Below, one piece after another: positions 253-63,653 of a stretch of DNA of 64,000 nt (the stretch's first letter is position 1; the number at the start of each line of letters is the position of its first letter). The notes beneath the pieces were generated by a model. That model ran no database searches and was not told where the DNA came from. It worked only from the letters and a program-made list of their open reading frames with translations. The stretch comes from an uncultured Solibacteraceae bacterium (GTDB lineage: Bacteria; Acidobacteriota; Vicinamibacteria; Vicinamibacterales; SCN-69-37), in contig CAYQRM010000046.1 of the NCBI GenBank assembly GCA_964419785.1, positions 9,473-73,472 of the forward strand, written 5' to 3'. The position numbers were made by a program, and so were the translations under genes.

Positions 253-291
253 GAAAGTCGAGAAGTCGAAAAGTCGAAAGTCGAAAAGTGA
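253..291. repeat. Tandem AAGTCGA word array (4 copies, period 7-8)
   Basis: AAGTCGA at 255-261, 263-269, 271-277 and 278-284, between the upstream stop (249) and the GGAGGAGGA SD of the M28 gene. Confidence 0.8.
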
Positions 292-304
292 ACGGAGGAG
301 GACC

Positions 305-1675
305 GTGAGATCGATCGCCGTCGCCGTCGTCGCGTCAGCGCTCGGCACCATCACGCTGCTCGCGCAATCGCCCGCGTGGCTCGAACCGTACAAGCCCATC
401 GCGCAGAAGATCATCGCGCAGTCGCAATCAAGCGACTTCGCGTGGAAGCGGCTCGCGGAGCTGACCGACACCTACGGCAATCGTCTGTCCGGTTCGGCGA
501 CGCTCGAGCAAGCCATCGACTGGGCCGTCGGGACGATGAAAACCGACGGCCTCGAGAACGTGCACAAAGAGCGCGTGATGGTGCCGAAGTGGGTGCGCGG
601 GCACGAGAGCCTCGACCTCGTCGAGCCCGTCCGCCAGCCGCTCGTGATGCTCGGCCTCGGTAACTCCGTCGGCACGCCGCCCTCCGGCGTCGAGGCCGAC
701 GTCGTCATCGTCAAGAGCTTCGAGGATCTCGACCGGCACGCCGCCGACGTCAAAGGCAAGATCGTCCTCTTCAACGTGCCGTTCACTGACTACGGCCAGA
801 CGCGCCCGTATCGTTCGGACGCGCCATCGCGGGCGGCGAAGCTCGGCGCCGTCGCGACGCTCGTCCGGTCGGTGGGACCGGCGGGCTTGCGCACACCGCA
901 CACAGGCGGGCTCACCTACACGGCGGACGCACCGAAGATTCCCGCCGCCGCGGTGCCGACCGAAGACGCCGATCGGTTTCAGCGGCTGATCGATCGCGGC
1001 GTCCGCGTGCGGGTCCACCTGACGATGGACGCGCACTTCGATCCCGACTCGCCGTCCTACAACGTGATTGGCGAGCTTCGCGGCCGCGAGCTGCCGAACG
1101 AGATCGTCGTTGCCGGCGGGCACATCGATTCGTGGGACGTCGGGGCGGGCGCGAGCGATGACGGCGGCGGATGCATCGTCACCTGGGAGGCGCTGCGATT
1201 GATGAAGCAGCTCGGCCTGCGACCGCGGCGCACGGTCCGCGTCGTGCTGTTCGTGAACGAGGAGAACGGCGACAAGGGCGGCGAGGGCTATCGCGACGCC
1301 CATCAGGCTGAGCTCGCAAATCACGTCGTGCTGCTCGAGTCGGACGGCGGCGTCTTCGATCCCGCCGGCTTCGGCTACACCGGTCCCGAGCCGGCTCGCG
1401 CCACGATTGCGGCCATCGCGAGCCTGTTGTCGTCAATCGGCGCGACACAGGTCACCGCCGCGGGCGGCGGCACAGACATCGAGCCCGCCGCGACCGCCGG
1501 CAAGATCCCGATGCTCGGACATCTGTCGAACGGCGATTATTTCTTGATTCACCACACGCCGGCCGACACGATCGCGCGCATCACACCGAAGCAGGTGTCG
1601 GACAACGCGGCCGCGATCGCGGTGATGATCTACACGATTGCGGACCTGCCGTGGAAACTTGGACAGGAGAGGTGA
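305..1675 (+). CDS. M28 family metallopeptidase with PA domain, secreted
   Basis: Motifs GGHIDSWDVGAGASDDGGG, VNEENGDKGG and IHHTPADT. GTG at 305 is preceded by the SD GGAGGAGGA, and the signal-like N-terminus is VRSIAVAVVASALG. The track start at 239 reads through the tandem repeat. Confidence 0.9.
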   Translation: MRSIAVAVVASALGTITLLAQSPAWLEPYKPIAQKIIAQSQSSDFAWKRLAELTDTYGNRLSGSATLEQAIDWAVGTMKTDGLENVHKERVMVPKWVRGHESLDLVEPVRQPLVMLGLGNSVGTPPSGVEADVVIVKSFEDLDRHAADVKGKIVLFNVPFTDYGQTRPYRSDAPSRAAKLGAVATLVRSVGPAGLRTPHTGGLTYTADAPKIPAAAVPTEDADRFQRLIDRGVRVRVHLTMDAHFDPDSPSYNVIGELRGRELPNEIVVAGGHIDSWDVGAGASDDGGGCIVTWEALRLMKQLGLRPRRTVRVVLFVNEENGDKGGEGYRDAHQAELANHVVLLESDGGVFDPAGFGYTGPEPARATIAAIASLLSSIGATQVTAAGGGTDIEPAATAGKIPMLGHLSNGDYFLIHHTPADTIARITPKQVSDNAAAIAVMIYTIADLPWKLGQER

Positions 1676-1696
1676 CAGACAAACACAGGTGTCAAG

Positions 1697-1786
1697 TCAG
1701 AGGTCAGAGGTCAGAAGTCAGAGGTTCGGAAGATCACGCGTGCGCTCTGAACTTCGAACTTCTGGCTTCTGACTTCTGACGTGATC
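1697..1786. repeat. Imperfect inverted repeat of GAAGTCAGA-type words (arms about 1703-1732 / 1752-1780)
   Basis: Left arm is GTCAGAGGTCAGAAGTCAGAGGTTCGGAAG. The reverse complement of the right arm is GTCAGAAGTCAGAAGCCAGAAGTTCGAAG. Lies between convergent genes. Same word family as 50677-50807 and 53539-53643. Confidence 0.8.
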
Positions 1787-5555: not shown

Positions 5556-5645
5556 TGCGTCACTTGTCTCATTTCGTTACCGGTCGTGTGCCTCGACGGC
5601 GCCACCGGTCAGGCCCGGCTTCGCCAAGCTGGGCCAGACCCGCGC

Positions 5646-7697
5646 TCAAACTGCGAATACGTCAGCGCGCCACTCGATCCCCAGCTCCGACGGCGGCGCC
5701 ATGTAGCCGACGAGCGCCGAGGCCGCGACGACGGCAGGACTCGCGAGATAACCCTCGCCGCCAAGCCCCATGCGATTCTGCCAATTTCGATTGAACGACG
5801 TGATCGCGCGCTGACCGGCCGTGAGCGAGTCTTCGCCCTGGCCGAAGCACGGCCCGCACCACGATTGCCGAATCACCGCGCCGGCGCCGCGGAACACGTT
5901 CGCGATCGACTCGCCGCCGAGCCGCTGATCAGGCCGCTCGATCTCGCGTCCGACGCCGCCCGATCCCGGAAACACCTTGAACTCGCGCGTCGCTTTCGTC
6001 ACGCCGTGCGAGGCGGCCGCACGAATGACGAGCGCGGCCTGCAGCAGATCGTCATAGCTGCCGTTCGTGCAGGACCCGATCAGCGCCTTGTCGAACGTCA
6101 GCCGCTCGCGCGCGACCTCCTCAGCCGGAAACGCATTGCCCGGGCTGAACGGCTTCGCGATCATGGGCGCCACCGTCGAGAGATCGAACATCTCGTCGAT
6201 CTCGTACACGGCGTTCGCACCGGGCGCGACCGGCGGGTACGGCAGATCGCGCAGGCCTTTCGCGCGGTACCAGCCGAGCGTGATCTCGTCGGGCGCGAAG
6301 ACGCCATTGAGCGCCTCGGCCTCGGCCATCATGTTCGCGATCGTGTTGCGCGACACCATCGGCAGCTGCTTGCCCGCGTCAACGAACTCGACCGACATGC
6401 CCTGCGACTGCTTCGCGCCCCATCTGCGCAAGAGCTCGAGGACGATGTCCTTGCCGCCGACCCACGGGTTGAGCTTGCCCGTGAACACGACGCGCCGCTG
6501 CTTCGCCAGCGTGAAATAGATGTAGCCCGTCGCCCATCCAAATCCCAGGGTCGTCGATCCCACGCCGATGCCGACGGCCCCGTACGCACCGTAAGCGCGG
6601 CTGTGCGAATCGGCGCCGGGAATGAACTGGCCCGGCAGCACGAGGCCCTGTTCGGGAAAATAGAAATGGAAGATGCCGTCGCCTGGCGTGGCGTAGTACG
6701 GCTTTCTCATGTCATTGGCCGCGGCGAACTCGCGGCCGATCGACGTCTGCTTTTCGTCTTCGTCCTTGCCCGTAAAGACGAAATGGTCGTTCGCGACGGC
6801 GGCCTGCCGGGGAAAGATCGTGTTGCCGCCGGTGATCTGGTTGAACGTGTGGATCGCAAACGGCGCCGTGCCGTCCGAGGCTGGCAGCAAATCGGCGAGC
6901 ACGCGCAGCGTCGCACCCGGCTTGAATTCATGCCGCGCGAGGCCGCGATCGACGCGATGCGCCCACACGATCTGCTCGGTCGTCGTCATCGCGCGCGCGA
7001 GGCTCTCGTCGGGCCAGTCGAGCGTGGGTTTGGCGGCGACCGACGACTTGAACTCGCGACGCCCGACGGCAAAGATTCCGCCGCTGCGCCTGATTTCCTC
7101 TTCCTTCGGCGAGAGCGCGACCGGCGTGTAGCGCTTGCCCTGCGTGACGTTCTCAATGGCGCGCGAAACGGCATCGAACGTGAACTCGTCTCCGTCCTTT
7201 GCGTCGGCCACCGCTTCGGGGCACTGAACGACGTGAAGGCCGAGGTTGAACGAATTGCGACGGAAGATGTCGCCCATGTTCTGTCCGCAGATGATGACCA
7301 TCTCGCGGCCGACCTCCTCCGCGACGGCCTTGAGCCCGGCCGGACTCATCTCACGTGACGATCCAATCGCAAAACGGTCCCCCGCGATGAGGAACGTTTC
7401 GCCGCGGTGCACGCGGGCGCGAAAGTCGGGCATCAGGTAGCGAAACGCGCCGACTTTCCAGCGCAGGTCGAGCGTCTCGAGACTCTCCGAGACACAGTCG
7501 GCCGCCGGCGTGATCTGATCGGTGTCGATCGCGTCGAGCTTCTTCGTTCCGGGCGCCGCCTTCGGGTCCCAGAAAATGAGCGCGCGGCCGCGCACGACGT
7601 GCGTCGAGCGGCTTCCGACGGCGGGTGCGGGCCCCGGGTCGGTCAGGCTCTCGAGCGTGACGCCCGGCTTCATCCGTGCGGAATCGATCCGTTGCAT
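5646..7697 (-). CDS. Aconitase-superfamily hydratase with permuted domain order (LeuD-like swivel domain N-terminal, LeuC-like domains C-terminal)
   Basis: N-terminal part: GDRFAIGSSREMSPAGL...IFRRNSFNLGL (small-subunit-like). C-terminal part: GADSHS, IGSCTNGSYDDL and WCGPCFGQG (Fe-S ligand motifs). Confidence 0.85.
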   Translation of the reverse strand: MQRIDSARMKPGVTLESLTDPGPAPAVGSRSTHVVRGRALIFWDPKAAPGTKKLDAIDTDQITPAADCVSESLETLDLRWKVGAFRYLMPDFRARVHRGETFLIAGDRFAIGSSREMSPAGLKAVAEEVGREMVIICGQNMGDIFRRNSFNLGLHVVQCPEAVADAKDGDEFTFDAVSRAIENVTQGKRYTPVALSPKEEEIRRSGGIFAVGRREFKSSVAAKPTLDWPDESLARAMTTTEQIVWAHRVDRGLARHEFKPGATLRVLADLLPASDGTAPFAIHTFNQITGGNTIFPRQAAVANDHFVFTGKDEDEKQTSIGREFAAANDMRKPYYATPGDGIFHFYFPEQGLVLPGQFIPGADSHSRAYGAYGAVGIGVGSTTLGFGWATGYIYFTLAKQRRVVFTGKLNPWVGGKDIVLELLRRWGAKQSQGMSVEFVDAGKQLPMVSRNTIANMMAEAEALNGVFAPDEITLGWYRAKGLRDLPYPPVAPGANAVYEIDEMFDLSTVAPMIAKPFSPGNAFPAEEVARERLTFDKALIGSCTNGSYDDLLQAALVIRAAASHGVTKATREFKVFPGSGGVGREIERPDQRLGGESIANVFRGAGAVIRQSWCGPCFGQGEDSLTAGQRAITSFNRNWQNRMGLGGEGYLASPAVVAASALVGYMAPPSELGIEWRADVFAV

Positions 7698-7709
7698 ACC
7701 GGAAGCTTA

Positions 7710-7922
7710 TCAGTCAGCCCCGGTTCCGGAGTCACGACGCTCGTAGCCCTCGCAGGCGAGCACGGGTAGCGCCGGATATCGGCGAAATCGGGAATCGGTC
7801 TTCGAGAGCTCACACATAATGAACCGGCTGCCGCGATCGCTCGTGATCACGCGAACATGCCGGCACGAGTCGCACAGGCCCGCGGGAATCGCACCTTGCC
7901 GCCGTTCGTCACGATCGTTCAT
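7710..7922 (-). CDS. Small Cys-rich conserved hypothetical protein
   Basis: MNDRDERRQGAIPAGLCDSCRHVRVITSDRGSRFIMCELSKTDSRFRRYPALPVLACEGYE contains CxxC...C...C. ATG at 7922 lies 8 bp from the divergent apaG start. Confidence 0.6.
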   Translation of the reverse strand: MNDRDERRQGAIPAGLCDSCRHVRVITSDRGSRFIMCELSKTDSRFRRYPALPVLACEGYERRDSGTGAD

Positions 7923-7930
7923 GATGGCGC

Positions 7931-8317
7931 ATGCCCTTGTCAGAAGCGACGACGCTCGGCGTGAAGGTCCAGGTGGTCTCGGAGTACGACCCCGAACGCT
8001 CACGCCCGCTCGAGCATCAGTGGTTCTTCCGCTACACGATCACGATCACGAATCAGAAACCCGAGACCGTGCAGCTGCTCTCGCGTCACTGGATTATCAC
8101 CGACGGCCGCGGCAAGATCGACGAGGTGCGCGGGCTCGGCGTCGTCGGCCAGCAGCCCGCGATCGAGCCAGGCGAGTCATACACGTACTCGTCTGGCGCT
8201 TCGCTCCAGACGTCATCCGGCAAGATGGAAGGCACGTACCAGATGGCCGCGCAGTCGGGACAGCTGTTCGACGTCAAGATCGCACGGTTCGCACTCGAGC
8301 AGACGACAGTGCACTGA
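7931..8317 (+). CDS. apaG: ApaG (DUF525) protein
   Basis: Full-length match to the ApaG pattern: ...FFRYTITITNQKPETVQLLSRHWIITDGRGKIDEVRGLGVVGQQPAIEPGESYTYSSG... Confidence 0.92.
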   Translation: MPLSEATTLGVKVQVVSEYDPERSRPLEHQWFFRYTITITNQKPETVQLLSRHWIITDGRGKIDEVRGLGVVGQQPAIEPGESYTYSSGASLQTSSGKMEGTYQMAAQSGQLFDVKIARFALEQTTVH

Positions 8318-8335: not shown

Positions 8336-8598
8336 TTCATGTCCCTCCAGAAATCATGAAGGCAGTGAAGGTAATGAAGCTCATGAAGCGGACGTGAGCG
8401 CCGTCGATCTGGCGGCGGCCGCAGGCGGCCTGGCGAGCGAGCAGAAAGGTCGCAGAAACACAAGCCGCAACGTCCACCTCGGGCTTGTGTTTCTACGACC
8501 TTTCTGCTCGCTCGCGCCCGGCTTCGCCGGGCCGCCAGATCGACGGCGCGGTCGAGCCTGCCTTCATGTCCTTCAATTCCTTCAGGACCTTCATGTGA
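8336..8598. repeat. ~260-bp composite imperfect palindrome (arms ~125 nt) between convergent apaG and aat
   Basis: Centre is near 8474. Inner arm GAGCGAGCAGAAAGGTCGCAGAAACACAAGCC pairs with GGCTTGTGTTTCTACGACCTTTCTGCTCGCTC. Middle GCGCCGTCGATCTGGCGGC pairs with GCCGCCAGATCGACGGCGC. Outer arms are CATGAAGG-type words (8355-8388 / 8562-8595). Confidence 0.9.
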
Positions 8599-9186: not shown

Positions 9187-9552
9187 TCAGTACTCCGGCG
9201 GCGGTTCGATGAACGGTTGCGGTGTTGGCCCCGGATCCGGACGCCCGCTGCCCGCCAGGCGGCTGATCGCACGCACGGACATGTCGTGGTCGCACAGGAT
9301 CTGACATGACAGGCGCACGCCGGTAACGCCCTTCCGCGCGAGCGCGGCGATCTCCGCCTTGGTGTGCGTCGCAGGCTCGCCGGCGAGGAAGACCACACGA
9401 CACGTCGTGCAGCGGGCATGACCACCGCAGGCATGCAACTGGTCGATACGAGCGTCCTGTTCCAGCGCGAGGACCAGGCGCTTGCCGTTCGGCACGTCGA
9501 ACGTCCCCACGGATTCCACGGTCAGCTTTGGCACCCTCCGATCATAGGGCAT
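9187..9552 (-). CDS. 2Fe-2S ferredoxin-like protein with Pro-rich C-terminal tail
   Basis: MPYDRRVPKLTVESVGTFDVPNG... with CGGHARCTTCRV...SCQ cysteine pattern. Start chosen at the internal ATG (9552). Confidence 0.7.
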   Translation of the reverse strand: MPYDRRVPKLTVESVGTFDVPNGKRLVLALEQDARIDQLHACGGHARCTTCRVVFLAGEPATHTKAEIAALARKGVTGVRLSCQILCDHDMSVRAISRLAGSGRPDPGPTPQPFIEPPPEY

Positions 9553-9955
9553 CCCGCGCGAGCCGCCGTCGTCCGATCCGGTTCGGACGGCCGAGGCGCT
9601 CGAAGTACGTCTCGAGCGATTGCGTGATCCGCGCGGCCTCGCGGCCGAGATCGAGCGCCGTCCGGCTCGCGGACTTCGAGAAATAGCCGCGATCGATTCC
9701 GTCTTCGATCGCCGCCAGCGCTGCGGCGAGCTGATGCCCGGCCTCACCAAGCGCGCGTGCCGACGCCTGATCCGCGCCATTGCGGATGCCCTCGGCCACG
9801 GCGGCCTCGGCTGCACGTGCGGCACGAAACAGACCGACGCTGAAGCGCATGTCCGCCGCCGCGACCGCGCTGGCTTTGAGCAACCGGCACACGGCCTGCG
9901 TGAAGGCGTGCGCGATCTGCCACGCGCGCACGTCTTCGATCCGCCGTCCCGTCAC
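9542..9955 (-). CDS. Four-helix-bundle protein (23S rRNA intervening-sequence protein family)
   Basis: IEDVRAWQIAHAFTQAVCRLL..., Ala-rich helices and a terminal ...SLETYFERL resemble the family. Start is uncertain: GTG 9955 is preferred, and the track ATG is at 10093. Confidence 0.55.
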   Translation of the reverse strand: MTGRRIEDVRAWQIAHAFTQAVCRLLKASAVAAADMRFSVGLFRAARAAEAAVAEGIRNGADQASARALGEAGHQLAAALAAIEDGIDRGYFSKSASRTALDLGREAARITQSLETYFERLGRPNRIGRRRLARDAL

Positions 9956-10131
9956 GATGGACGGAGACTGCAAGCGGTGTTCCCGGTCGCGCCACCGTTT
10001 TGCCGAGCAATTCGATCTACGCGCGCAGAATCTGCAACGCGCGGGCGCCTGCGCGATCGCGGTTGCTGCAGCCTGGCCAAGCTGATGCGTCACGCCGCAT
10101 CCGGCACCAAGAGCAACTCACTGTTCTTGGA

Positions 10132-11154
10132 CTAGCTCTTGCGATATCGCTCGCGAATCGTCGGGATCAGATAGTCCCGGAACGCGCGCTCGAAGTCGTA
10201 CGTCGACGCGAAGCCCCAGTCGCGCCGCGCCGCGGAATCGTCGACGTCCTCGGGCCAGGAGTCGACGATGCCTTGCCGCTTCGCGTCGACCTTGAATGTG
10301 ATGTCGGCCTGAGGAAACGCGCGAAGGACCTCGGCGCGGATCTCGTCGGCGGTACGCGCGAACGCGCCGAGATTGTAGGCCGTCCTGGTGAGCCGCTCTC
10401 TAGGCGCGTGCGCCAGTGTCATCAGCGCTTCGACGCCGTCGGGCATCGCCATGAACGGAATCTTTGCGTCCGGCCGAACGAAACACGCGTACGGCTCGCC
10501 GCGCGCGGCAGCGTGAATCATTTCCGGCGCGTAATCCGACGTCCCGCCTGACGGCACCGTCACGGCGGAAATCAGGCCAGGAAATCGCACCGCCCGGAAG
10601 TCGACGCGCCCGCTCTGCGATTCGGCGGCCAGCTGCTTGTAGAAGCGCGCGTAGTAGTGGCCGAGCTGCTCGCAATACAGCTTGTTGCAGCCGTACATCG
10701 TCCGCGGCAGCGCCCAGTCGGGCTCCCGCACTCGGCCCGCGTCGCGTTTGGCCTCGATCGTCGGCAGGCCGTACACGGCAATCGACGATGGGTAGAGGAA
10801 CGTCACCGGTCGGCCGTGCGACTCCGCCTCCCGCTGCGCAAACTCCAGCAGGTTGAGCGTGCCTTCGACGTTGACCTGATGCGCCGTCACCGGCGAAAAC
10901 TCCGCCCGCGTCGACAGGAGCGCCGCGAGGTGAAAGATGAAATCGACCTCGAACTCCGCCAGGATGCGATCGATCGCCGCGTGGTCGAGGATCGAGCCAC
11001 TGACCTCGCGCAAGACCTTGCGCGAGAGCGCCGGATCGAGCGGCGCGACGTCGAGGGTGACAATCCCGCGGCTGCCGTCGCTGGCAAGTCGCTCGATGAG
11101 GCCGTGGCCGATTTCGCCGGACGCGCCGGTGATGAGAACGACTGGTCGCCGCAT
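10132..11154 (-). CDS. Extended-SDR NAD-dependent epimerase/dehydratase, L-threonine 3-dehydrogenase-like
   Basis: MRRPVVLITGASGEIGHGL (Rossmann), YGCNKLYCEQLGHYY (YxxxK), FPGLISAVTVPSGGTSDYAPEM. The track N-terminal extension to 11943 is antisense to the rhomboid gene. Confidence 0.88.
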   Translation of the reverse strand: MRRPVVLITGASGEIGHGLIERLASDGSRGIVTLDVAPLDPALSRKVLREVSGSILDHAAIDRILAEFEVDFIFHLAALLSTRAEFSPVTAHQVNVEGTLNLLEFAQREAESHGRPVTFLYPSSIAVYGLPTIEAKRDAGRVREPDWALPRTMYGCNKLYCEQLGHYYARFYKQLAAESQSGRVDFRAVRFPGLISAVTVPSGGTSDYAPEMIHAAARGEPYACFVRPDAKIPFMAMPDGVEALMTLAHAPRERLTRTAYNLGAFARTADEIRAEVLRAFPQADITFKVDAKRQGIVDSWPEDVDDSAARRDWGFASTYDFERAFRDYLIPTIRERYRKS

Positions 11155-15961: not shown

Positions 15962-16019
15962 GCTGGGTTCCTCACGCTGGGTCCCTACGGAGGGTTCCTT
16001 ACGCGGGTTCGGTTCCCCT
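15962..16019. repeat. Tandem GGGTTCC-word array (4 units, period ~13-14)
   Basis: CTGGGTTCCTCACG / CTGGGTCCCTACGG / AGGGTTCCTTACG / CGGGTTCGGTTCCCC, between the two HEAT-repeat genes. Confidence 0.75.
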
Positions 16020-17137: not shown

Positions 17138-17216
17138 AAGTCCCGGGACCTCTCAGAGGTCCGGGGACCTCTCAGAAGTCCTTGGGACCTGGGCGAAGTC
17201 CCCCGGGACCTCGCAG
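17138..17216. repeat. Four tandem 19-21-nt units, each with an internal GTCC-N-GGAC mini-hairpin
   Basis: AAGTCCCGGGACCTCTCAG / AGGTCCGGGGACCTCTCAG / AAGTCCTTGGGACCTGGGCG / AAGTCCCCCGGGACCTCGCAG. Confidence 0.85.
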
Positions 17217-20507: not shown

Positions 20508-20542
20508 ACATCCTGGCGGATTAAGGACTTCAGCAAAGGCCG

Positions 20543-28288: not shown

Positions 28289-28833
28289 TGGTGACCGCCT
28301 TGTGGTTGTCCGGCCATCACGAGTTTGACGAGCGACTCGAACTCGGACACGGGCAACATCCGCCGGAGACTGTCGCCGCGAACGACCTGGCCTGTCGTCG
28401 CGGTCTGCGGTGCCACGACCGGCGCCGCGATCACCTGACCGGCGCCCGGCACCGCACGAATGGTGAACAGTCCTTGCGACAAGCCGACGATACGAAGCGC
28501 GTTGTCACGACCGCGCTTGAGCAGGAAGACCGCTTGATCGTTCACGGCGAACGTCGGCGCGCCGACGAAGACATATCGATACCGGCCGATCGTTCCGCCA
28601 GGCACGCGCACGGAGATGAAATCGTCGGCCTGACCCTTGAGGACGGAATCGACGGCGACGGTCACGGCCGACTCGACGCCGGTCGGCAGCGAGATGCCGC
28701 GCACGTCGGTCACGTGGCCGCGCACGATGAGCGTCGCGTCGGCGACTGCCTCACGGAAGCTGACGGGCACGAGCTCTGTCGCGTGCGCGCCCGCCAGAGA
28801 GATCACGAATAGGAGTACGGTCAGTGTGCGCAT
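28285..28833 (-). CDS. Secreted hypothetical protein (182 aa)
   Basis: Signal peptide MRTLTVLLFVISLAGAHA. No family recognised. The track ORF extension to 29712 is antisense to lpxB. The start codon sits at the edge of the 124-bp palindrome. Confidence 0.6.
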   Translation of the reverse strand: MRTLTVLLFVISLAGAHATELVPVSFREAVADATLIVRGHVTDVRGISLPTGVESAVTVAVDSVLKGQADDFISVRVPGGTIGRYRYVFVGAPTFAVNDQAVFLLKRGRDNALRIVGLSQGLFTIRAVPGAGQVIAAPVVAPQTATTGQVVRGDSLRRMLPVSEFESLVKLVMAGQPQGGHQ

Positions 28834-28955
28834 TGGGGACGGGGGATTTTTCCACAGATCGGGCCCCCTCGGAGCCGGAGGTCGGTCGGTCATCTGCCCT
28901 CCCGACCTCCGGCTCCTTGGGGGCCCGATCTGTGGAAAAATCCCCCGTCCCCAAT
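28832..28955. repeat. 124-bp near-perfect palindrome (54-nt arms, 2 mismatches, 16-nt loop)
   Basis: ATTGGGGACGGGGGATTTTTCCACAGATCGGGCCCCCTCGGAGCCGGAGGTCGG / loop / CCGACCTCCGGCTCCTTGGGGGCCCGATCTGTGGAAAAATCCCCCGTCCCCAAT. Confidence 0.95.
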
Positions 28956-38761: not shown

Positions 38762-39220
38762 ATGATCAGGACTGTCGTGAGCGATCCCCTTCTTACTCAG
38801 GACGCCGCGGATTTGGCCGAAGAAGCCCGGCGGCTGCTGGTCGAGCTCGACCGCGACGTCCCGAGCGCGGCGGCGGTGACGACGGATTGCCGCCCGCCGA
38901 TCGACGTGTTCGAGACGACGGACGCGGTCGAGGTCGTCGTCGATGTGCCTGGCGTGGCGCCCGATCGCCTGCGCGTGGCCGTGCGCCGCGACACGGTGCT
39001 CGTCGTGGGCGTGAAGCTCGCCCCGGTGGCAGACATCCGATCGCGCTTTCATCTCGCAGAGCGCGCGTACGGTCATTTCGCGCGCGCGGTGCGGCTTGGC
39101 GGCGCGTTCGACGCCAATCGCGCGCGGGCGCTCGCGTCGGGCGGACAGCTGCGTGTCGTGCTGCCGCGGATCGAAGAACGCCGGGGACGCGTGATCGAAG
39201 TGGCGGTGGAGCGCGGATGA
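38762..39220 (+). CDS. Hsp20/alpha-crystallin family small heat-shock protein (divergent second copy)
   Basis: PPIDVFETTDAVEVVVDVPGVAPDRLRVAVRRDTVLVVGVK...YGHFARAVRL...GQLRVVLPR. Start uncertain: ATG 38762 has no clear SD. Confidence 0.8.
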   Translation: MIRTVVSDPLLTQDAADLAEEARRLLVELDRDVPSAAAVTTDCRPPIDVFETTDAVEVVVDVPGVAPDRLRVAVRRDTVLVVGVKLAPVADIRSRFHLAERAYGHFARAVRLGGAFDANRARALASGGQLRVVLPRIEERRGRVIEVAVERG

Positions 39221-44282: not shown

Positions 44283-44454
44283 CATCGGCGATTGGCGATT
44301 TGAGATCGGCGAGGGTATCGGCGATCGGGCGATTGAGCTATCGATCAGCAACGAGCCATCGTCATATGCGATGAGTCGATCGGTCCATCGGTCGATCGGT
44401 CCATCGCTCGATCGCCGATACCATCGCCGATCGCCCATCGCCGATCATCGATGA
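44283..44454. repeat. 172-bp imperfect inverted repeat of ATCGGCGAT-type words filling the nadK/mltG convergent gap
   Basis: Left: GATCGGCGAGGGTATCGGCGATCG. The reverse complement of the right arm is GATCGGCGATGGTATCGGCGATCG. Centre holds 2 tandem copies of TCGATCGGTCCATCG. Confidence 0.8.
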
Positions 44455-45468: not shown

Positions 45469-45941
45469 CCGGCGTCCTGCGGGTCGTCGGCCGCGACGAA
45501 CGCCGCGCGGGCTCGTGCATCGAGAAAATCCTGAAGGATGATGGCCGCTGCGGCGGCGTCGAGCTTCTCTTTGCGACGTCGCCAATCGGGCTCGCGCTCG
45601 GCCAGGCGCGCGTCGGCTTCGTGACTCGTCAACCGCTCGTCCTGCAGATGCGTCTCCAGTCGCGTGAGCTCGGCGAGCGCGCCGGCGAACGCGCGCGCCT
45701 CGCCGGTTTGCGCGTTGTCCTCGCCGCCCAGACGGCGCGGCAGGCCGACGACGATCCCGCCGAGATCGGAGAGCTCGTCGTCGGTCTCGCGCGCGGCGAC
45801 GATTGACGCGATCTCTTTCGCCGACTCGTGCGGCGTCGCCTGCGCCGCGACGGTCTTCCACGGCCGGGCGAGCGATCCGCTCGCGTCCGACACGGCCAGC
45901 CCGATCCGTCGGCGGCCGTAGTCTACGCCGAGAAAGCGCAT
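45462..45941 (-). CDS. ruvX: Holliday junction resolvase-like RuvX (YqgF)
   Basis: MRFLGVDYGRRRIGLAVSD...IVVGLPRRLGGEDN..., ..DERLTSHEA. 7-nt overlap with the mltG start. Confidence 0.9.
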   Translation of the reverse strand: MRFLGVDYGRRRIGLAVSDASGSLARPWKTVAAQATPHESAKEIASIVAARETDDELSDLGGIVVGLPRRLGGEDNAQTGEARAFAGALAELTRLETHLQDERLTSHEADARLAEREPDWRRRKEKLDAAAAAIILQDFLDARARAAFVAADDPQDAGC

Positions 45942-50565: not shown

Positions 50566-50642
50566 AGGCATGTAGCTCAGCTGGTTAGAGCGCCTGCTTG
50601 ACATGCAGGAGGTCGGCGGTTCGAGTCCGCCCGTGCCTACCA
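50566..50642 (+). tRNA. tRNA-Val (anticodon GAC), CCA encoded
   Basis: Cloverleaf by hand. Acceptor AGGCATG/CGTGCCT, D arm GCTC-AGCTGGTTA-GAGC, anticodon arm CCTGC-TTGACAT-GCAGG, T arm GGCGG-TTCGAGT-CCGCC, then A-CCA. Confidence 0.93.
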
Positions 50643-50674
50643 TTTGAGTCGGCCGCGGAACGGCCGACTCAAAT
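50642..50674 (+). terminator. Perfect 14-bp hairpin immediately after tRNA-Val
   Basis: ATTTGAGTCGGCCG-CGGAA-CGGCCGACTCAAAT. No clear U-tract. Confidence 0.55.
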
Positions 50675-50676
50675 GG

Positions 50677-50807
50677 AAGTTCGAAGCCCGGAGTTCGAAG
50701 TTTGCCGATCGCGAGACGAGTACGGACCAAGACGGACACTCCACATTGCGTTGTGTTCTTCCTCTTCACGTCTGACTTCTAACTTCTGGCTTCTAACTTC
50801 TGACTTG
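50677..50807. repeat. GAAGTT(C/A)GAAG word-repeat element in the thrS leader
   Basis: Left: GGAAGTTCGAAGCCCGGAGTTCGAAG. The reverse complement of the right arm (50776-50800) is GAAGTTAGAAGCCAGAAGTTAGAAG. The right arm ends 3 nt before the thrS ATG. Confidence 0.75.
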
Positions 50808-50810
50808 ATC

Positions 50811-53530: not shown

Positions 53531-53538
53531 AACGGATC

Positions 53539-53643
53539 AAGTTAGAAGTCAGAAGCCAGAAGTTAGAAGTTCGGACAGTACGCGGAACTCTGACTCTGAA
53601 TGGATATCTGAACTTCTAACTTCTGGCTTCTAACTTCTAACTT
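53539..53643. repeat. 105-bp inverted repeat (34-nt arms, 1 mismatch) between rpmI and rplT
   Basis: Left arm: AAGTTAGAAGTCAGAAGCCAGAAGTTAGAAGTTC. Right arm: GAACTTCTAACTTCTGGCTTCTAACTTCTAACTT. 37-nt loop. Confidence 0.92.
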
Positions 53644-53657
53644 CCCGAGAGGGGTTT

Positions 53658-54059: not shown

Positions 54060-54256
54060 TTCACCACGAAGCTCACGAAGGGCCGCGAAGGAAAGAGTGG
54101 CCGATATCGTGGTTAAGACCGACGTCGGGGCCTGTCGCGCGCCGCCGATCTGACGGCGTCGAGGCCCGCCTACGGTCCTACGTGGTTGATTGCTCTTTGC
54201 TGCCAATGCGGCGTGACCGTCCGACCTTCGCGGCCCTTTGTGAGCTTCGTGGTGAA
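54060..54256. repeat. ~197-bp hairpin element (32-nt outer arms, 1 mismatch) in the rplT-pheS spacer
   Basis: TTCACCACGAAGCTCACGAAGGGCCGCGAAGG ... CCTTCGCGGCCCTTTGTGAGCTTCGTGGTGAA. The core GCCGCCGATCTGACGGCGTCGAGGCC resembles 8531-8558. Confidence 0.9.
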
Positions 54257-54280: not shown

Positions 54281-54309
54281 TTGGCATCTCGCGCATGACA
54301 CGCTATGCT
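54281..54309 (+). promoter_or_regulatory. Candidate sigma-70-type promoter for pheST (TTGGCA-N17-TATGCT)
   Basis: -35 TTGGCA at 54281-54286, a 17-nt spacer and -10 TATGCT at 54304-54309, 24 nt before the pheS ATG. Confidence 0.4.
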
Positions 54310-54332: not shown

Positions 54333-55412
54333 ATGACCGACTCGCATCCCGAGATCGACAAAATCCGCGCGCGGTTTCTCGAGGCCATGGCCGCCGTCAA
54401 GACGACGGCGGACCTGAAAGCCGTGCGCGACGGCTTTGTGGGGCGCACGAAGGGCGAGCTCAACACCGCGCTCAAACAGATTTCCTTTCAGCCGCCGGCA
54501 ATGCGGCCGGCGTTCGGCGCGGCCGCCAACGCGCTCAAGCGCGAGATCGAGCAGACGCTCGAGCTGCGCGAGCTCGAGCTCGTCGCCCAGATGCCCGCGG
54601 CCGGCGGCGTGGACATCACGCTGCCCGGCCGGCTGCCGCTCGTCGGCCGGCGGCATCCGCTCACGCAAGTTCGCGAGCGCGTCGAAGACATCTTCCTCGC
54701 GATGGGCTATCAGGTCATCGAGGGCCCGGAGATCGAGGACGACTGGCACAACTTCGAAGCACTCAACATGCCGCACGAGCATCCCGCGCGGGATATGCAG
54801 GACACCTTGTACCTGGCTTCGCCTGGAAGTCCGGGCGACTTGAGAAGCGCGGGTGACTCGCGAAGTCCGCGCGCTGGAACGCTGCTCAGGACGCACACGT
54901 CGGGCATGCAGATTCGCTACATGGAATCGAACCCGCCGCCGGTGCGCGTGATCGCGCCGGGGCGCGTGTACCGGCGCGACAACTTCGACGCGACGCACAC
55001 GCCGATGTTCACGCAGGTCGAGGGCCTGGTCGTCGACGAGGGCATCAGCCTCGGCGACCTCAAGGGCACGCTCAACGCGTTCGCCGAGCGCTTTTTCGAG
55101 GGCAAGGTCAAGACGCGCTTTCGCCCGAGCTTCTTCCCGTACACCGAGCCCTCGGCCGAAATGGACGTCGAGTGCCAGGGCTGTCACGGCAAGGGCTGCG
55201 GCCTCTGCAAGCACACGGGTTGGATGGAGATTCTCGGCTGCGGCATGGTGCATCCCGCCGTCTTCGAGAACGTCGGATACGACGCGGAGAAGTACACCGG
55301 CTTCGCGTTCGGCGTCGGCATGGAGCGCCTCGCGCTGCGGCTCTACGGCGTCGACGACATCCGGATGTTCTTCGAGAACGACCTGCGCTTCCTCGAGCAG
55401 CTCGCGCCATGA
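54333..55412 (+). CDS. pheS: Phenylalanine--tRNA ligase alpha subunit
   Basis: HPLTQV, GPEIEDDWHNFEALN, LLRTHTSGMQIRYM, FRPSFFPYTEPSAEMDV, GCGMVHP. Contains an in-frame 3x18-nt repeat at 54827-54880. Confidence 0.96.
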   Translation: MTDSHPEIDKIRARFLEAMAAVKTTADLKAVRDGFVGRTKGELNTALKQISFQPPAMRPAFGAAANALKREIEQTLELRELELVAQMPAAGGVDITLPGRLPLVGRRHPLTQVRERVEDIFLAMGYQVIEGPEIEDDWHNFEALNMPHEHPARDMQDTLYLASPGSPGDLRSAGDSRSPRAGTLLRTHTSGMQIRYMESNPPPVRVIAPGRVYRRDNFDATHTPMFTQVEGLVVDEGISLGDLKGTLNAFAERFFEGKVKTRFRPSFFPYTEPSAEMDVECQGCHGKGCGLCKHTGWMEILGCGMVHPAVFENVGYDAEKYTGFAFGVGMERLALRLYGVDDIRMFFENDLRFLEQLAP

Positions 55413-58041: not shown

Positions 58042-58043
58042 GG

Positions 58044-58135
58044 CATCGTCCGAGATCCGAAGTCCGAGGTCCGGAGTTGATGTGTCGTCCGAAGTTACGG
58101 GGACCGCGGACTCCGGACTACGGACCCCGACGACG
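58044..58135. repeat. Imperfect inverted repeat of GTCCG/AGTCCGGA words downstream of zapA
   Basis: GTCCGGAGT (58069-58077) pairs with ACTCCGGAC (58110-58118); the flanking pairing is imperfect. Word content resembles 17138-17216. Confidence 0.6.
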
Positions 58136-58151
58136 TCTGTTACTATGGTGT

Positions 58152-58326
58152 CCCTGCTTTGCTCGTGATTGGTTCGGAGCGTCGCTTGAGCCAACGTTCT
58201 ACAACGAAGTGAGCTGCGACGCCGCGTGGTGTGCACGCCTCCGCAGTGAGGAAGCCTGAAGCGCGGCTGCAAGCGGCTCCACCTGCTATGCAGGTTCAAA
58301 CGACCTCCCCACACGGCAAAGCGGGG
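58152..58326 (+). ncRNA. ssrS: 6S RNA (SsrS) candidate
   Basis: Non-coding gap after zapA, the conserved zapA-ssrS synteny. Closing stem CCCTGCTTTGC/GCAAAGCGGGG, then CGTG/CACG, GGAG/CTCC, GTCG/CGAC, TTGAGCC/GGTTCAA, a central asymmetric region, an apical stem CTGCG...GCGTG-loop-CACGC...CGCAG and a T-rich tail. Confidence 0.6.
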
Positions 58327-58366
58327 TTTCTTGTTTCCCTCCACTCCACATTCGCACGGCGGACAC

Positions 58367-59478: not shown

Positions 59479-59496
59479 ATTGTCCTGGAGGACAAT
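59479..59496 (+). promoter_or_regulatory. Perfect 7-4-7 palindrome ATTGTCC-TGGA-GGACAAT in the AT-rich leader of the 3D-domain gene
   Basis: Lies in the AT-rich tract 59441-59500, ~50 nt upstream of ATG 59548. Could be an operator or an RNA hairpin. Confidence 0.35.
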
Positions 59497-59547
59497 TTGC
59501 TCCCCTTTCGACGCGTCAAAGGGTAGGCTAGGGGTGTCCCTGACGCG

Positions 59548-61795: not shown

Positions 61796-61889
61796 AGCTG
61801 TGTCGGTGTCTGGTGCTCAGGTCAGCGGATCGCTTCGAACAGGTCTGTGGGGTCAGGCCCCGGCTCGCGCCACTGAGGCCAGACCCCGA

Positions 61890-63653
61890 TCAGGTCAGCG
61901 CTTCGACTTCTGCCTCCAGCAACTGTCTTCGGTGCATCTCCGCGTACAGCCCATCCCGGGCCACCAGCGAATCGTGCGTCCCGCGCTCGGCGACGCGGCC
62001 GCGGTCCAGCACGAGGATCTCGTCGGCGTCGCGGACGGTGGAAATGCGATGCGCGATGATCAGGCACGCGCGCGATCGGCGAACGCCGCGCAGACCGTGA
62101 AGGATCGTCTCTTCCGTCGCCGTGTCCACGGCCGACAGCGCATCGTCGAGCACGAGAATGCGCGGGTCGATCGCGAGCGCGCGCGCGAGGGCGACGCGCT
62201 GCTTCTGGCCGCCCGACAGCGTGATGCCCCGCTCGCCGAGCACGGTCTCGAGTCCTTGCGCGAAGCCTTGGACGTCGGCCGAGAGCCCGGCGGTCGAGAC
62301 GGCGCTGTCGACGTGGGCTCGCGCCGGTTCCGCCCGCCAGTCGCCGGGCAACCCGAACGCTACGTTCGCGCCGATCGTTTCGGAGAACAGAAATGGTTCC
62401 TGGGGGACGACGCCAATCGCACGGCGCAGGCCGTCGAGCGGCAGATCGCGAATGTCGGTGCCGTCAACGAACACGGTCCCCGCCGGCGGCTCGTGCAGGC
62501 GTGGCAACAGCTGGACGAGCGTCGACTTTCCCGAGCCGGTCGCGCCCACCAACGCGACCGTCCGTCCAGGCTCGAGCACGAACGACACGTCTTCGAGCGC
62601 GTTGGTCGCGACCTTCGGGTACCGGAACGTCAAGTGGCGAACCTCGAGGCGACCTGACAGGTCGAGCTGCGCGTCGACGCGCGAAGGTCCGGCGCCGGCG
62701 GCCGGGGCGTCGAGCACCTCGAGCATGCGCTCCCACGATGCGACGCCGCGCTGGACGATGTTGATCACCCACCCGAACGCGATGAGCGGCCAGCTCAGCA
62801 AGACGAGGTACCGGCCAAACGCGACAAACTCGCCGAGCGTCAGCCGTCCGCCGATCACGTCGCGGCCGCCGAACCACAGCACGAGCAGCCCGCTCAACCC
62901 GAAGCAGAACGTCAGGCTCGGAAAGAACGCGGACTGCAGCCGAATCAACCCGCGGTTGCGTCGCACGTACTCGTCGTTCGCGCTCTTGAACCGCGCGAGC
63001 TCGAACGCCTCCTGCCGGTACGCGCGGACGACGCGCACGCCCGACAGCGCTTCTTGAACGACGGCGCTCAAATCCGCGAGCTGTGCCTGAATGCGCTCGA
63101 AGCGATCGTGAATCGCGCTGCCGAAATAGCGCGTGGCGATCGTGACCGCCGGCAGCGGCAGCAACGCGATGAGCGTCAGCTGCCAATCGATCGCAAACAT
63201 GAGCGAGACGGCGATTACAAAACCGAGCGCGGTACTACAAAAATACATCACGGCCGGACCGACCATCATCCGCACCGCGCTTAAATCGTTGGTGGCGCGG
63301 GACATAAGATCGCCCGTGCGATTTGCCTGGAAATACGCCAGCGGCAGACGCTCGAGATGCGCGAAGAAGGCGTTGCGCAGGTCATATTCGATCCGCCGAG
63401 AGGCGCCGATAAGCAGAGAGCGCATCAGGTAGCGGAACCCTCCGTCGGCGATGGCCAGCATGAGCGTCAGCGCCGCCAGCCACGCAAGCCGGGTCCGACT
63501 GATGCCCTGGGTGAGGCCGTCGATGACGTACTTCAAGACCCAGGGCGCCACGAGCGAAATCGCCGTGGCGACGAGGATGCAGGCGAGCCCGGCCACGAAC
63601 GATCGTCGGGTGCGCCGGATGTACGGAAGAAGGCGCGCGAGCGCCCGGACCAT
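61890..63653 (-). CDS. ABC exporter, fused permease/ATPase, heterodimer partner 1
   Basis: MVRALARLLPYIRR..., Walker A GATGSGKSTL, signature LSGGQKQRVALARA, Walker B ILVLDDALS. The track N-terminal extension was rejected. Confidence 0.92.
   Translation of the reverse strand: MVRALARLLPYIRRTRRSFVAGLACILVATAISLVAPWVLKYVIDGLTQGISRTRLAWLAALTLMLAIADGGFRYLMRSLLIGASRRIEYDLRNAFFAHLERLPLAYFQANRTGDLMSRATNDLSAVRMMVGPAVMYFCSTALGFVIAVSLMFAIDWQLTLIALLPLPAVTIATRYFGSAIHDRFERIQAQLADLSAVVQEALSGVRVVRAYRQEAFELARFKSANDEYVRRNRGLIRLQSAFFPSLTFCFGLSGLLVLWFGGRDVIGGRLTLGEFVAFGRYLVLLSWPLIAFGWVINIVQRGVASWERMLEVLDAPAAGAGPSRVDAQLDLSGRLEVRHLTFRYPKVATNALEDVSFVLEPGRTVALVGATGSGKSTLVQLLPRLHEPPAGTVFVDGTDIRDLPLDGLRRAIGVVPQEPFLFSETIGANVAFGLPGDWRAEPARAHVDSAVSTAGLSADVQGFAQGLETVLGERGITLSGGQKQRVALARALAIDPRILVLDDALSAVDTATEETILHGLRGVRRSRACLIIAHRISTVRDADEILVLDRGRVAERGTHDSLVARDGLYAEMHRRQLLEAEVEALT

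Follow-up and report, generated by a model that had tools for sequence, protein, structure and literature searches.

Repeats at gene boundaries of an acidobacterial genome

We analysed the gene boundaries of a 64,000-nucleotide stretch of DNA from an uncultured Solibacteraceae bacterium (contig CAYQRM010000046.1, positions 9,473 to 73,472), hereafter the window. Its G+C content is 66% and its gene content is of the housekeeping kind, with tRNA-Val, thrS, infC, rpmI, rplT, pheS, pheT, a zapB-like gene, zapA and 6S RNA following one another at the right end; the closest named homologues of its ChaN-like and LpxB proteins come from Vicinamibacterales (Acidobacteriota). A first-pass annotation had listed tandem short words and hairpins at 13 loci, which we name by their first position, and had treated them as a single class of element. 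We found that three kinds had been lumped together: a dispersed module of five heptamers, family A (1697, 50677 and 53539); arrays of short words specific to their locus; and a palindrome, family B (28832-28955). Our results confirm what was observed and support its interpretation in part: the elements are genuine, occur throughout the lineage and match no earlier description, but they are heterogeneous, and slippage in place explains much of what was put down to mobility.

All 13 loci were read directly, arrays were called with Tandem Repeats Finder (TRF), and folding was scored as z against dinucleotide-preserving shuffles. Tandem words, inverted repeats or both are present at every locus by TRF, inverted-repeat search and folding (Table 1). 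TRF arrays lie at 11 of the 13, and the inverted-repeat search recovered the hairpin arms where they had first been placed, as five arm pairs of 32-62 nt with 82-97% identity. Seven regions fold strongly (1697, 8336, 28832, 44283, 50640-50810, 53539 and 54060), two fold weakly (58044 and 17138), the fold at 61816 does not differ significantly from shuffles, and 253 and 15962 are tandem arrays only. No run of T follows the hairpins, as expected from the original remark that they lack U-tracts.

The claim that most of the longer gaps hold such an element was too generous, although the elements are frequent: the listed ones occupy 12 of the 22 non-divergent gaps of at least 50 nt (a manual count on the gene map), which is nearer half than most. 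The three gaps of this length that are divergent and carry promoters (7698-7960, 39077-39216 and 45469-45620) hold no element and have |z| <2, and several further gaps are ordinary by the same measure. One small hairpin lay outside the first list; its motif recurs at 61851-61868, and a pattern allowing up to three mismatches gave four matches against 0.19 expected. As for sequence shared between loci, the three reported copies of GAAGTTAGAAGCCAGAAG are real, with 0 expected by chance, but are in fact four arms at three loci, while the core said to be common to the 8.3-kb and 54.1-kb elements is marginal (local alignment score 32, shuffle maximum 30).

Pfam searches of all open reading frames (ORFs) on the gene map except four short or truncated ones found no transposase, in line with the annotation, and no RAYT, the transposase associated with repetitive extragenic palindromic (REP) sequences; for the thrS-to-zapA stretch the check used precomputed Pfam families of the orthologous gene calls of the relative L001. 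A small ORF at 9542-9973 (-) has a sub-threshold match to '23S rRNA-intervening sequence protein' (26.5 bits, cut-off 33.8). In Rfam, at gathering and E-value thresholds, only the 6S RNA and tRNA matches were genuine; microRNA-precursor matches on the hairpins are generic to long stems and spurious.

For comparison we used related sequences, labelled L with a number. L001 is a metagenome contig with an identical L20 protein, and L002-L006 are identical to it; it shares ~94% nucleotide identity with the window across 43.5-64 kb, and the alignment is interrupted exactly at 44283-44454, 50677-50807 and 54060-54256. More distant orthologous loci (L018, ~80% identity; L099 and L071, ~72-78%) came from a DNA-pattern scan, relatives at 74-88% identity (L108-L112) from a protein-based metagenome scan, and L113-L121 from ChaN and LpxB look-ups. 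Among the last, L119 is the closed 5.1-Mb chromosome OY969918.1, of which L043 is another site. L109 carries ~750 nt extra (6238-6986), probably an additional gene, opposite the 35-nt window spacer 20508-20542.

Table 1 Repeat elements of the window, with setting and evidence (HMM, hidden Markov model of family A arms; SD, Shine-Dalgarno sequence; z, folding score)
Position	Strand	Feature	Setting	Evidence
253..291	+	(A)AAGTCGA tandem array, ~4.6 units, unmirrored	Upstream ORF stop codon 247-249; then SD and GTG (305) of M28 peptidase gene	TRF, period 7-8 (253-289); no hairpin (z +0.5); not detected by family A HMM
1697..1786	.	Family A hairpin	Convergent M28 peptidase (+) / ChaN-like (-)	Folding, z -6.9 to -8.5; + strand -59.1 kcal/mol, z -8.5; - strand -42.7 kcal/mol, z -5.9; HMM arms 1750-1783(-) E 4.5e-10, strong, and 1704-1727(+) E 0.009, weak; TRF, period 7 (1696-1725, 1746-1780)
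5607..5640	.	Small extra hairpin GGTCAGGCCCGGCTTCGCC...GGGCCAGACC		Gap z -2.8
8336..8598	.	263-nt composite hairpin; CATGAAGG-type 9-nt words at each end, nested inverted repeats within	Convergent ApaG (+) / Leu/Phe-tRNA protein transferase (-)	z -11.8; TRF, period 9 (8354-8389, 8561-8596); inverted repeat 8433-8466 / 8482-8515, 34 nt, 97%
15962..16019	+	Tandem GCTGGGTTCCTAC array, 3.7 units	Between two co-directional HEAT-repeat genes	TRF, period 13 (15962-16010); no hairpin (z +1.4)
17138..17216	+	19-nt units AAGTCC-N-GGGACC-TCTCAG, ~4, each a mini-palindrome	Upstream of sortilin/BNR gene	TRF, period 19 (17138-17190); z -1.5
28832..28955	.	Family B, 124-nt near-perfect palindrome	3' end of lpxB (-); touches next gene's ATG (28831-28833, - strand)	-131.1 kcal/mol, z -18.4 (range -14.9 to -18.4); inverted repeat 28832-28892 / 28895-28955, 61 nt, 92%
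44283..44454	.	172-nt hairpin of ATCGGCGAT-type 7-8-nt words	Fills convergent NAD kinase (+) / YceG (-) gap	Inverted repeat 44283-44344 / 44392-44453, 62 nt, 82%; z -8.9; TRF, period 7-8 (44287-44446)
50637..50679	+	19-bp stem hairpin, distinct from the word repeat	Overlaps 3' end of tRNA-Val(GAC) (50566-50642)	Inverted-repeat search
50676..50807	.	Family A: degenerate left arm, 85-nt loop, strong right arm	Right arm ends 3 nt short of ATG 50811 and overlaps alternative TTG start of thrS at 50805	HMM arms 50774-50807(-) E 4.7e-11, strong, and 50675-50701(+) E 0.23, weak; element fold z -2.2; 50640-50810 z -6.4, partly from the separate post-tRNA hairpin; TRF, period 7 (50676-50702, 50771-50806)
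53539..53643	.	Family A hairpin	Between rpmI and rplT; right arm stops just ahead of rplT SD (GAGAGG)	-65.5 kcal/mol, z -9.65 (range -9.5 to -9.65); HMM arms 53538-53571(+) and 53611-53644(-), both strong, E 3e-11 and 1e-10; inverted repeat 53539-53575 / 53607-53643, 37 nt, 95%; TRF, period 7 (53539-53571, 53611-53644)
54060..54256	.	197-nt hairpin, CACGAAG-type words at both ends	Bounded by rplT stop codon and conserved promoter-like pheS site (54281-54309)	Inverted repeat 54060-54091 / 54225-54256, 32 nt, 97%; gap z -8.0
54827..54880	+	In-frame 18-nt units (GAAGTCC..GGAC type), SPGDLRS-like low-complexity insertion	Within pheS	
58044..58135	.	Weak hairpin, GTCCGAR heptamers and mirror image	Between zapA stop codon and 6S RNA gene (58148-58331)	TRF, period 7 (58048-58077, 58107-58129); z about -2
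61816..61909	.	Terminal direct repeats (CAGGTCAGCG..CTTCGA) flanking small hairpin; weakest locus	Between two - strand ABC transporter genes	z -0.5

A dispersed module of five heptamers

Family A is a 35-nt module of five heptamers with the consensus CAAGTYA GAAGTYA GAAGCCA GAAGTTA GAAGT and a GAAGT core. Its core 20-mer, GAAGTYAGAAGCCAGAAGTT, occurs four times in the window and 0 times in shuffles; in a representative-genome collection it gave more than 101 matching stretches, mostly in metagenome-assembled genomes (MAGs) of Acidobacteriota and with at least 18 tiles from OY969918.1, where chance would give a few matches for such a 20-mer in 596 Gb. The family thus has many further copies in related genomes and is not idiosyncratic to the window. 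We collected 34 inverted pairs and ~110 single arms (up to three mismatches), a roughly threefold excess of singles; the two module heptamers that lie outside the search pattern are 80-90% conserved. A pair is laid out as a module, a loop of 22-172 nt and the inverted module, often with the ends GATCAAGT...ACTTGATC, and measures 62-212 nt in total; whether lone arm or inverted pair, the copies are almost all intergenic.

Homology between copies can extend into the loop. The window element at 1697 shares its loop sequence with L097, two copies in L061, L035, L008 and L098, with dissimilar flanks, and the L097 copy, which is ~88% identical to it in the loop, is non-orthologous. Because the loops are homologous at sites without flanking similarity, whole family A elements have been copied. 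A family A HMM trained on 110 arms taken from elsewhere than the window recognised four strong arms and two weak partner arms in the window (Table 1) and nothing at the remaining loci, so family A explains 3 of the 13.

The order of the arms is fixed. Of 66 high-GC cases, 29 have a mirror partner on the downstream side of the purine-rich arm and 1 has it on the upstream side; other phyla contribute 6 downstream and 0 upstream cases, giving 35 against 1 for all loci together. The resulting GAAG...CTTC order is identical when read on either strand.

The position relative to genes is uneven: the pairs of high-GC loci occupy 18 co-directional, 10 convergent and 1 divergent gap, compared with a gap baseline of 64% co-directional, 19% convergent and 17-19% divergent (divergent depletion, p ~0.02-0.03; convergent enrichment, p 0.03). 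In most copies the core starts no more than ~25 nt after the upstream stop codon, a few reaching 14 nt into the upstream ORF, and as a rule the next gene begins no more than a few tens of nucleotides further on. Of the single arms in co-directional gaps, 19 have the purine-rich sequence on the sense strand and 7 the pyrimidine-rich one. Arms also stand 12-15 nt behind tRNA genes in L043 and L051, and one follows the tRNA-Val of the window. Tandem units of ~177 nt in L015 (7317-7690) and L100 each combine a family A arm with a stretch resembling a tRNA T-arm and acceptor (GGTTCGATTCC...GCGCCA); ARAGORN called no tRNA in them, and what is repeated there may be a tRNA fragment or a degenerate tRNA gene.

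The site between rpmI and rplT holds a family A element in L001, L018, L099 and L071 as well, and conservation is best in the right arm; the RpmI proteins of these five genomes are 73-94% identical. Family A as a whole keeps its module, central GCC variant included, across genomes whose flanking genes share 72-80% identity. In L071, a further family A hairpin separates two convergent genes whose counterparts in the window and in L001 overlap by 14 nt, and the last residues of the ABC transporter of L071 are replaced.

A palindrome at the 3' end of lpxB

Family B, which has no internal word repeat, spans the last 21 codons of lpxB (-). At least five genomes have it at this site, namely the window, L116/L117, OY969918.1 (L119) and L121 as well as L118 and L120, and a paralogue lies elsewhere in OY969918.1 (L043). 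The five complete copies comprise 47 pairs that are 97% paired, and 11 pairs have changed on both sides; none of 500 shuffles scored as high and shifted registers give at most 4. The element does donate a tail to LpxB, as the annotation had proposed, but relatives read the same palindrome in different frames (GDGGFFHRSG vs GTGDFSTDRA) and the LpxB of some has no tail altogether. Because the frames differ, it is the symmetry of the nucleic acid that is conserved and not the peptide. Either selection on a hairpin that both strands can use or palindrome correction at the DNA level could be the cause.

The contigs L118 and L120 end inside the palindrome. Long palindromes seem to break short-read assemblies and, since several short-read metagenome contigs stop inside them, such elements are probably under-represented in MAGs.

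Word arrays that change in place

Base-for-base conservation, one of the conditions under which the annotation would have taken the elements for local peculiarities, is not what the relatives show. The array at 253 has 4.6 AAGTCGA units in the window and ~1.5 in L113 between identical flanks, and this inequality indicates that it expanded in place. At 1697 the left arm has four heptamers in the window and six in L113 beside an identical loop. The GGTTCC word at 15962 is kept at the same site in L108/L111, L109 and L110 in ~2-5 copies (read by eye). At 17138, four tandem units in the window correspond to a mirrored array of ~300 nt in L112, with ~5 AGAAGTCCGG-type and then ~8 CCGGACTTCT-type units (by eye), to the reverse orientation alone in L110 and to nothing in L109.

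Elsewhere the words themselves are exchanged. Between zapA and 6S RNA, the mirrored GTCCGAR of the window is replaced in L001, despite ~94% identity, by GGTGCKC x3 with GCACCCR as its mirror; in L018 the spacer carries an unmirrored tandem of GGACCTT x3, and in L099 and L071 it is of different sequence. The 197-nt hairpin between rplT and pheS corresponds to ~100 nt of unrelated sequence in L001 and to almost nothing in L018. L001 further has just ~40 nt at 44283, the same word included, at 50676 only a remnant of the right arm, next to the start of thrS, and a 16-nt array (CCTCATTCACCCACTG x4.1) at 61816.

The composite element at 8336 adds a rearrangement: in L113 (positions 1-175) the segment between its perfect 19-bp inverted repeat (8398-8416 / 8531-8549) is inverted. 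As the contigs L113, L114 and L115 all end inside the element, this reversal may be a flip-flop inversion or an assembly effect. The element is absent from L108, which has GGGAACC words instead.

Insertion polymorphism, which the annotation had proposed to look for, gave a mixed picture. Presence/absence and replacement differences occur, among them the L071 hairpin at a site where the genes of the window and L001 overlap, but much of the variation is a change of copy number in place, and the other sites show replacements or copy-number changes rather than clean insertions. Hypermutability of the phase-variation kind was rejected, the arrays being identical in up to six contigs per spacer (L001-L006, six samples). 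So was dispersal of the other words: CAYGAAGS, ATCGGCGAT, GGGTTCC, GTCCGAR and AAGTCGA were found only at orthologous sites in ~560 kb of related sequence.

Heptamers are a general habit of these spacers. In the related loci (562 kb), with ascertained sites removed, a period of 7 or 14 is found for 52 of 110 intergenic arrays, compared with 24 of ~330 coding arrays; many different words are involved, and mirrored pairs are seen among them (AGGCACT/AGTGCCC, GGCTTAG/GCCCTAA). Further Acidobacteriota MAGs also have long arrays of heptamers whose words are unrelated (L063 6518-6638, L073 6609-6690, L013 5937-6034 and L077 5997-6177), among them GCCCGTA x9.9 and GGCTTAG/GCCCTAA, whose rotation TTAGGGC is telomere-repeat-like, and several are mirrored pairs. 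The exact family A 20-mer itself is found in heptamer arrays of Acidobacteriota, Planctomycetota, Verrucomicrobiota, Bacteroidota, Cyanobacteria, Nitrospinota and others. Because heptamer arrays of many words abound in the non-acidobacterial loci that carry it (124 period-7 arrays in 306 kb), these cross-phylum matches most likely reflect a common mutational habit and a popular word, not a shared mobile element.

Consequences for coding sequences

Besides LpxB, the repeats reach into other reading frames. The last 22 codons of the ChaN-like gene come from the right arm and loop of the element at 1697, confirming the suspected donated tail, which is missing in most orthologues. The in-frame copy in pheS is likewise a genuine variable array, with ~3 units in the window, 5 in L001, ~2 in L018 and 0 in L099 (by eye). 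In the protein it appears as (D/E)(S/L)RSPG repeats after the conserved DMQDTLY motif (54794-54890), a lineage-variable insertion that is 13 residues longer in L001 (about 11030-11130) than in the window and lacking in L099. The elements thus extend or replace protein C-termini (ChaN, LpxB and the ABC transporter) and insert low-complexity segments into PheS. Mechanically called ORFs run too far through repeats at their 5' or 3' ends (239-304, 50598-50804, 28890-30101, 61890-63974 and others) because the repeat words hold few stop codons in some frames, and gene callers are likely to mis-set starts and stops there.

A possible role at transcript ends

Canonical terminators, with hairpin and U-tract, are not enriched between 44 and 64 kb: 9 were found, 11.3 are expected, and none lies at a gene end or an element. 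The sole sigma-70-like match in the same interval, TTGGCA-17-TATGCT at 54281-54309 (+), precedes pheS and is kept in both L001 and L018, where the sequence on the rplT side is replaced; the hairpin at 54060 is just upstream of it. The 6S RNA gene (58148-58331, +; Rfam, 84.4 bits) adjoins zapA as ssrS does in E. coli, and a -10-like TACTATGGT just upstream of it is conserved in L001 and L018. The elements stand behind stop codons and tRNA genes and ahead of the promoter-like site of pheS and the 6S gene, and avoid divergent gaps. Those at rpmI-rplT and lpxB are fixed at one site through deep divergence, with the neighbouring spacers scrambled.

The reading we favour, with moderate confidence, is that slippage-driven intergenic repeats and one dispersed family have been kept at the 3' ends of transcripts, where their RNA hairpins would mark the boundaries of operons, a function that we infer from sequence. 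The spacers at transcript 3' ends in the lineage consist of short words in tandem, for the most part heptamers and frequently with a GAAG(T) core, and two processes shape them. Arrays expand, contract, flip and are replaced in place, as the comparison of orthologous sites shows and as replication slippage and recombination or template switching between inverted copies would produce. Homologous copies at non-orthologous sites show that the family A module is copied around the genome, either singly or in inverted pairs whose purine-rich arm comes first and whose loop varies. The family B palindrome, a third element, is kept symmetric by compensatory changes.

Once transcribed, the elements would fold into long hairpins that mark transcript ends, ahead of the next promoter or ribosome-binding site. 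They would persist because these hairpins terminate or insulate without needing a U-tract, or because they bar the way to 3' exonucleases; alternatively, the hairpins might block 3' exonucleases after Rho-dependent termination, as proposed for REPs. The purine-then-pyrimidine order would yield an identical 5'-purine / 3'-pyrimidine hairpin from either direction of transcription and would place a pyrimidine-rich RNA : purine-rich DNA hybrid at the usual position of the U-tract. Pyrimidine-rich RNA on purine-rich DNA is the weakest type of hybrid in nucleic-acid thermodynamics, and the 3' arm could replace the U-tract.

Beside a start codon, as at thrS and rplT, the pyrimidine-rich arm might also offer the ribosome an unstructured landing site. 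A role in translation initiation is possible there, by analogy with TAACTGA repeats (PMC4679880), because this arm abuts the start region and is the better conserved one, and because at thrS no SD lies between the repeat arm and the apparent start (TTG 50805 or ATG 50811), in the window or in L001.

Several points weigh against a role as transcript-end hairpins. The context statistics are modest (p ~0.03), their baseline includes element-bearing gaps and the loci were chosen for carrying the 20-mer. Arms are no more similar within pairs than between elements (31.5 vs 30.4 of 49 positions, p 0.12), so co-evolution of family A arms was not detected and pairing is not visibly selected in that family. 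A strand asymmetry of the kind expected of RNA (G-U vs A-C) was also rejected, with 9 of the co-directional pairs folding better in sense and 8 in antisense (18 pairs, p 0.48); a lean towards the sense strand is seen in the rpmI-rplT orthologues alone (4 of 4). G-U pairs are nearly absent from family B, which fits maintenance of symmetry at the DNA level no less than RNA structure. At five loci the array is tandem-only or the fold weak, and strong hairpins that lie within operons (rpmI-rplT; lpxB and its downstream gene) cannot terminate fully. Mycobacterial RNA polymerase, finally, requires a U-tract in vitro (PMC3993855), and hairpins without one may therefore not terminate unaided.

It is possible, though we doubt it, that the elements are instead neutral by-products of mutation: heptamer-biased slippage in unconstrained spacers, mirrored by template switching, would leave them functionless, and their conservation would be homogenisation. 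The spacers lend themselves to this explanation, with wholly different words at zapA-6S, rplT-pheS and between the ABC transporter genes in genomes that are ~94% identical, drifting copy numbers, expansion even within pheS when the unit is a multiple of three, and many unrelated heptamer words in related genomes and other phyla; the scarcity of G-U pairs in family B agrees with quasi-palindrome correction, and heptanucleotides are the commonest long simple sequence repeats of prokaryotes according to Mrazek (2007), as quoted in PMC4679880. Random mirroring, however, would yield both arm orders and not 29 against 1. Nor would neutrality lead one to expect a specific five-heptamer module, central GCC variant included, to be kept at 72-80% identity of the flanking genes, pairs to be depleted in divergent gaps, or the rpmI-rplT and lpxB elements to persist amid scrambled spacers; and the arrays are not hypermutable, since up to six contigs covering a spacer, drawn from six samples, show no difference.

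Mobility in the strict sense we consider unlikely. Family A, and perhaps other mirrored arrays, would then be non-autonomous transposons akin to miniature inverted-repeat transposable elements (MITEs) or to REPINs, their 35-nt terminal inverted repeats recognised by a transposase encoded elsewhere and their position at gene ends due to tolerance of insertion. The inverted terminal modules have defined ends (CAAGT...ACTTG) around a variable, non-coding core within 62-212 nt, copies are numerous within and across genomes, loops are homologous at non-orthologous sites, the site filled in L071 with replacement of gene tails is empty in the window and L001, arm polarity is fixed (29 vs 1), and both arms are equally close to the family consensus, as transposase constraint on both ends predicts. 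Yet no consistent direct duplication of target sites flanks the 34 pairs, the frequent GAT...ATC flanks merely lengthening the palindrome; the window encodes neither transposase nor RAYT, and no transposase-like ORF was seen between the widely spaced arms in L074 or L066. A composite transposon was rejected at L074, where such arms enclose an ordinary gene, a full-length ORF with Walker-type ATPase motifs (named by eye). Most loops are mutually unrelated, single arms are about three times as frequent as pairs, no near-identical copies were seen, arm copy number changes at fixed sites as expected of evolution in place, and deep divergence has left the rpmI-rplT copy where it was. Carriage by phages or plasmids found no backing either: no viral contig matched the 20-mer, and no plasmid matched a 120-nt family A query in a BLAST search whose low-complexity filter was on and may mask it.

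That the arrays are binding sites for a single-strand nucleic-acid-binding protein (S1, cold-shock or KH-type) or for the ribosome, tuning translation or RNA fate and masked by the hairpin, is very unlikely in our judgement, even though the better conserved pyrimidine arm adjoins the starts of thrS, which has no SD, and rplT, conservation lies in the GAAGT/ACTTC core at 7-nt spacing and not in arm-arm complementarity, single arms are common and mostly in one orientation to transcription (19 purine-sense vs 7), the same 20-mer recurs in heptamer arrays of many phyla, and the TAACTGA heptamers of Beggiatoaceae likewise lie a few nucleotides from SD-less start codons (PMC4679880): no candidate protein has been identified, most single arms stand behind stop codons and not ahead of start codons, the words vary between loci and close relatives in a manner hard to square with one sequence-specific binder, and the cross-phylum matches are explicable by the sheer number of heptamer arrays.

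A wider reading would make mirrored GAAG-core heptamer arrays with the purine arm first a signal shared across phyla, which would either mark transcript ends in both directions without a U-tract or bind a conserved single-strand-binding protein. We regard this as improbable; if true, the excess of heptanucleotide repeats in bacteria, a puzzle of long standing, would have found its function. The narrower reading, hairpins retained at transcript ends in this lineage, would matter for Acidobacteriota in particular, which are among the most abundant soil bacteria and in which transcript ends and the division of operons are almost unknown; the elements are obvious candidates for both.

Comparison with known systems

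The annotation had suggested that, if mobile, the elements would resemble REPs, bacterial interspersed mosaic elements (BIMEs) or MITEs, and that they matched no family it recognised. The latter holds, in that we obtained no Rfam match and found no paper on the five-heptamer module, its polarity or family B; membership in the former groups is not supported. REP, BIME and REPIN sequences are similarly extragenic, short and present in many copies at 3' gene ends and in convergent gaps, occur as inverted doublets that form hairpins and as single copies, and have proposed roles in termination and mRNA stabilisation (PMC3116915, PMC3733652). A defining feature of REPs, however, is a conserved GTAG/CGTC tetranucleotide at one end (PMC3733652), and family A has no such head. 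The REP or REPIN unit is a 20-40-nt imperfect palindrome, whereas the family A module is a run of five direct heptamers that is not self-complementary, so that the hairpin arises from two inverted modules; its ends are (GAT)CAAGT...ACTTG(ATC), its loops are long and variable, and no RAYT is present in the window, where the search was made.

MITEs such as Correia/CREE, ERIC, RUP and Nezha (PMC3184786) have in common with family A the terminal inverted repeats, a non-coding core, a length of 60-210 nt and a dispersed distribution, and can also overlap gene ends and donate C-terminal residues; MITEs leave filled and empty sites between relatives, a pattern that the L071 hairpin may match. Family A differs in having no target-site duplication, mostly unrelated cores, frequent lone arms and whole-heptamer changes of the arms at fixed sites, and we found no parent insertion sequence between widely spaced arms in the fetched tiles, the extent of that search. 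An analogy to DNA uptake sequences, suggested by the single copies and inverted pairs at gene ends, was set aside because the module is 35 nt long and almost always intergenic.

Rickettsia palindromic elements are repeats inserted in frame into essential protein genes, where they may extend ORF ends. The array in pheS resembles them as an in-frame insertion, and elements of the window likewise lengthen ORFs at their ends; it differs as a tandem expansion of 18-nt units, where theirs is a discrete palindrome, and has no sequence relation to them.

Intrinsic terminators, including the clustered or U-tract-less kind that has been put forward for high-GC bacteria (PMC8355165; in vitro results in PMC3993855 speak against it), are likewise stable hairpins behind stop codons and before the next promoter, symmetric and usable from both strands. 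Their stems measure 5-15 bp, compared with 30-60 bp or more here, where there is no U-tract, arms are of low complexity and some elements lie within operons. Acidobacteria were left out of the hairpin-cluster study for want of RNA-seq (PMC8355165).

The TAACTGA repeats of marine Beggiatoaceae, Cyanobacteria and Bacteroidetes (PMC4679880) are also heptamers near SD-less starts, as at thrS here, with occasional overlap of ORF ends and a patchy distribution over phyla. The word is another one (CTTCTRA / GAAGTYA here), only the thrS and rplT arms adjoin starts while most arrays lie behind stop codons, and inverted pairs, common here, are represented by one inverted set against 169 direct ones in that work. 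Family A shares with them the heptamer as its unit.

In architecture and location the nearest kinds are thus REPs, REPINs and MITEs; in the building block they are the heptanucleotide tandem repeats, among which are STRR sequences, the long simple sequence repeats of Mrazek (2007; via PMC4679880) and TAACTGA repeats. Heptanucleotide tandem repeats of cyanobacteria are reportedly the subject of Mazel et al. in 1990, under the name STRR sequences, and Jackman and Mulligan are said to have spoken in 1995 of STRR-type 'highly variable but structured intergenic regions'. As in those repeats, the arrays described here are intergenic, of period 7, with many words per genome and varying copy number, in spacers that are structured and yet different between close relatives. 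They differ in belonging to another phylum of high GC content, in that one type of word has become fixed as a dispersed five-heptamer module conserved across species, and in their regular mirroring with fixed purine-then-pyrimidine polarity. The function of heptanucleotide repeats is unresolved (bioRxiv 10.1101/2022.06.06.494920). The class is thus not categorically new; what is noteworthy is the module, its fixed polarity, the series of orthologous sites and the frame-independent conservation of the lpxB palindrome. The series, in which one site can be tandem-only, mirrored, inverted in a segment or replaced in its word, captures the birth and turnover of structured spacers in natural states, and the five-heptamer module provides a sequence-defined handle on why heptanucleotide repeats are common in bacteria.

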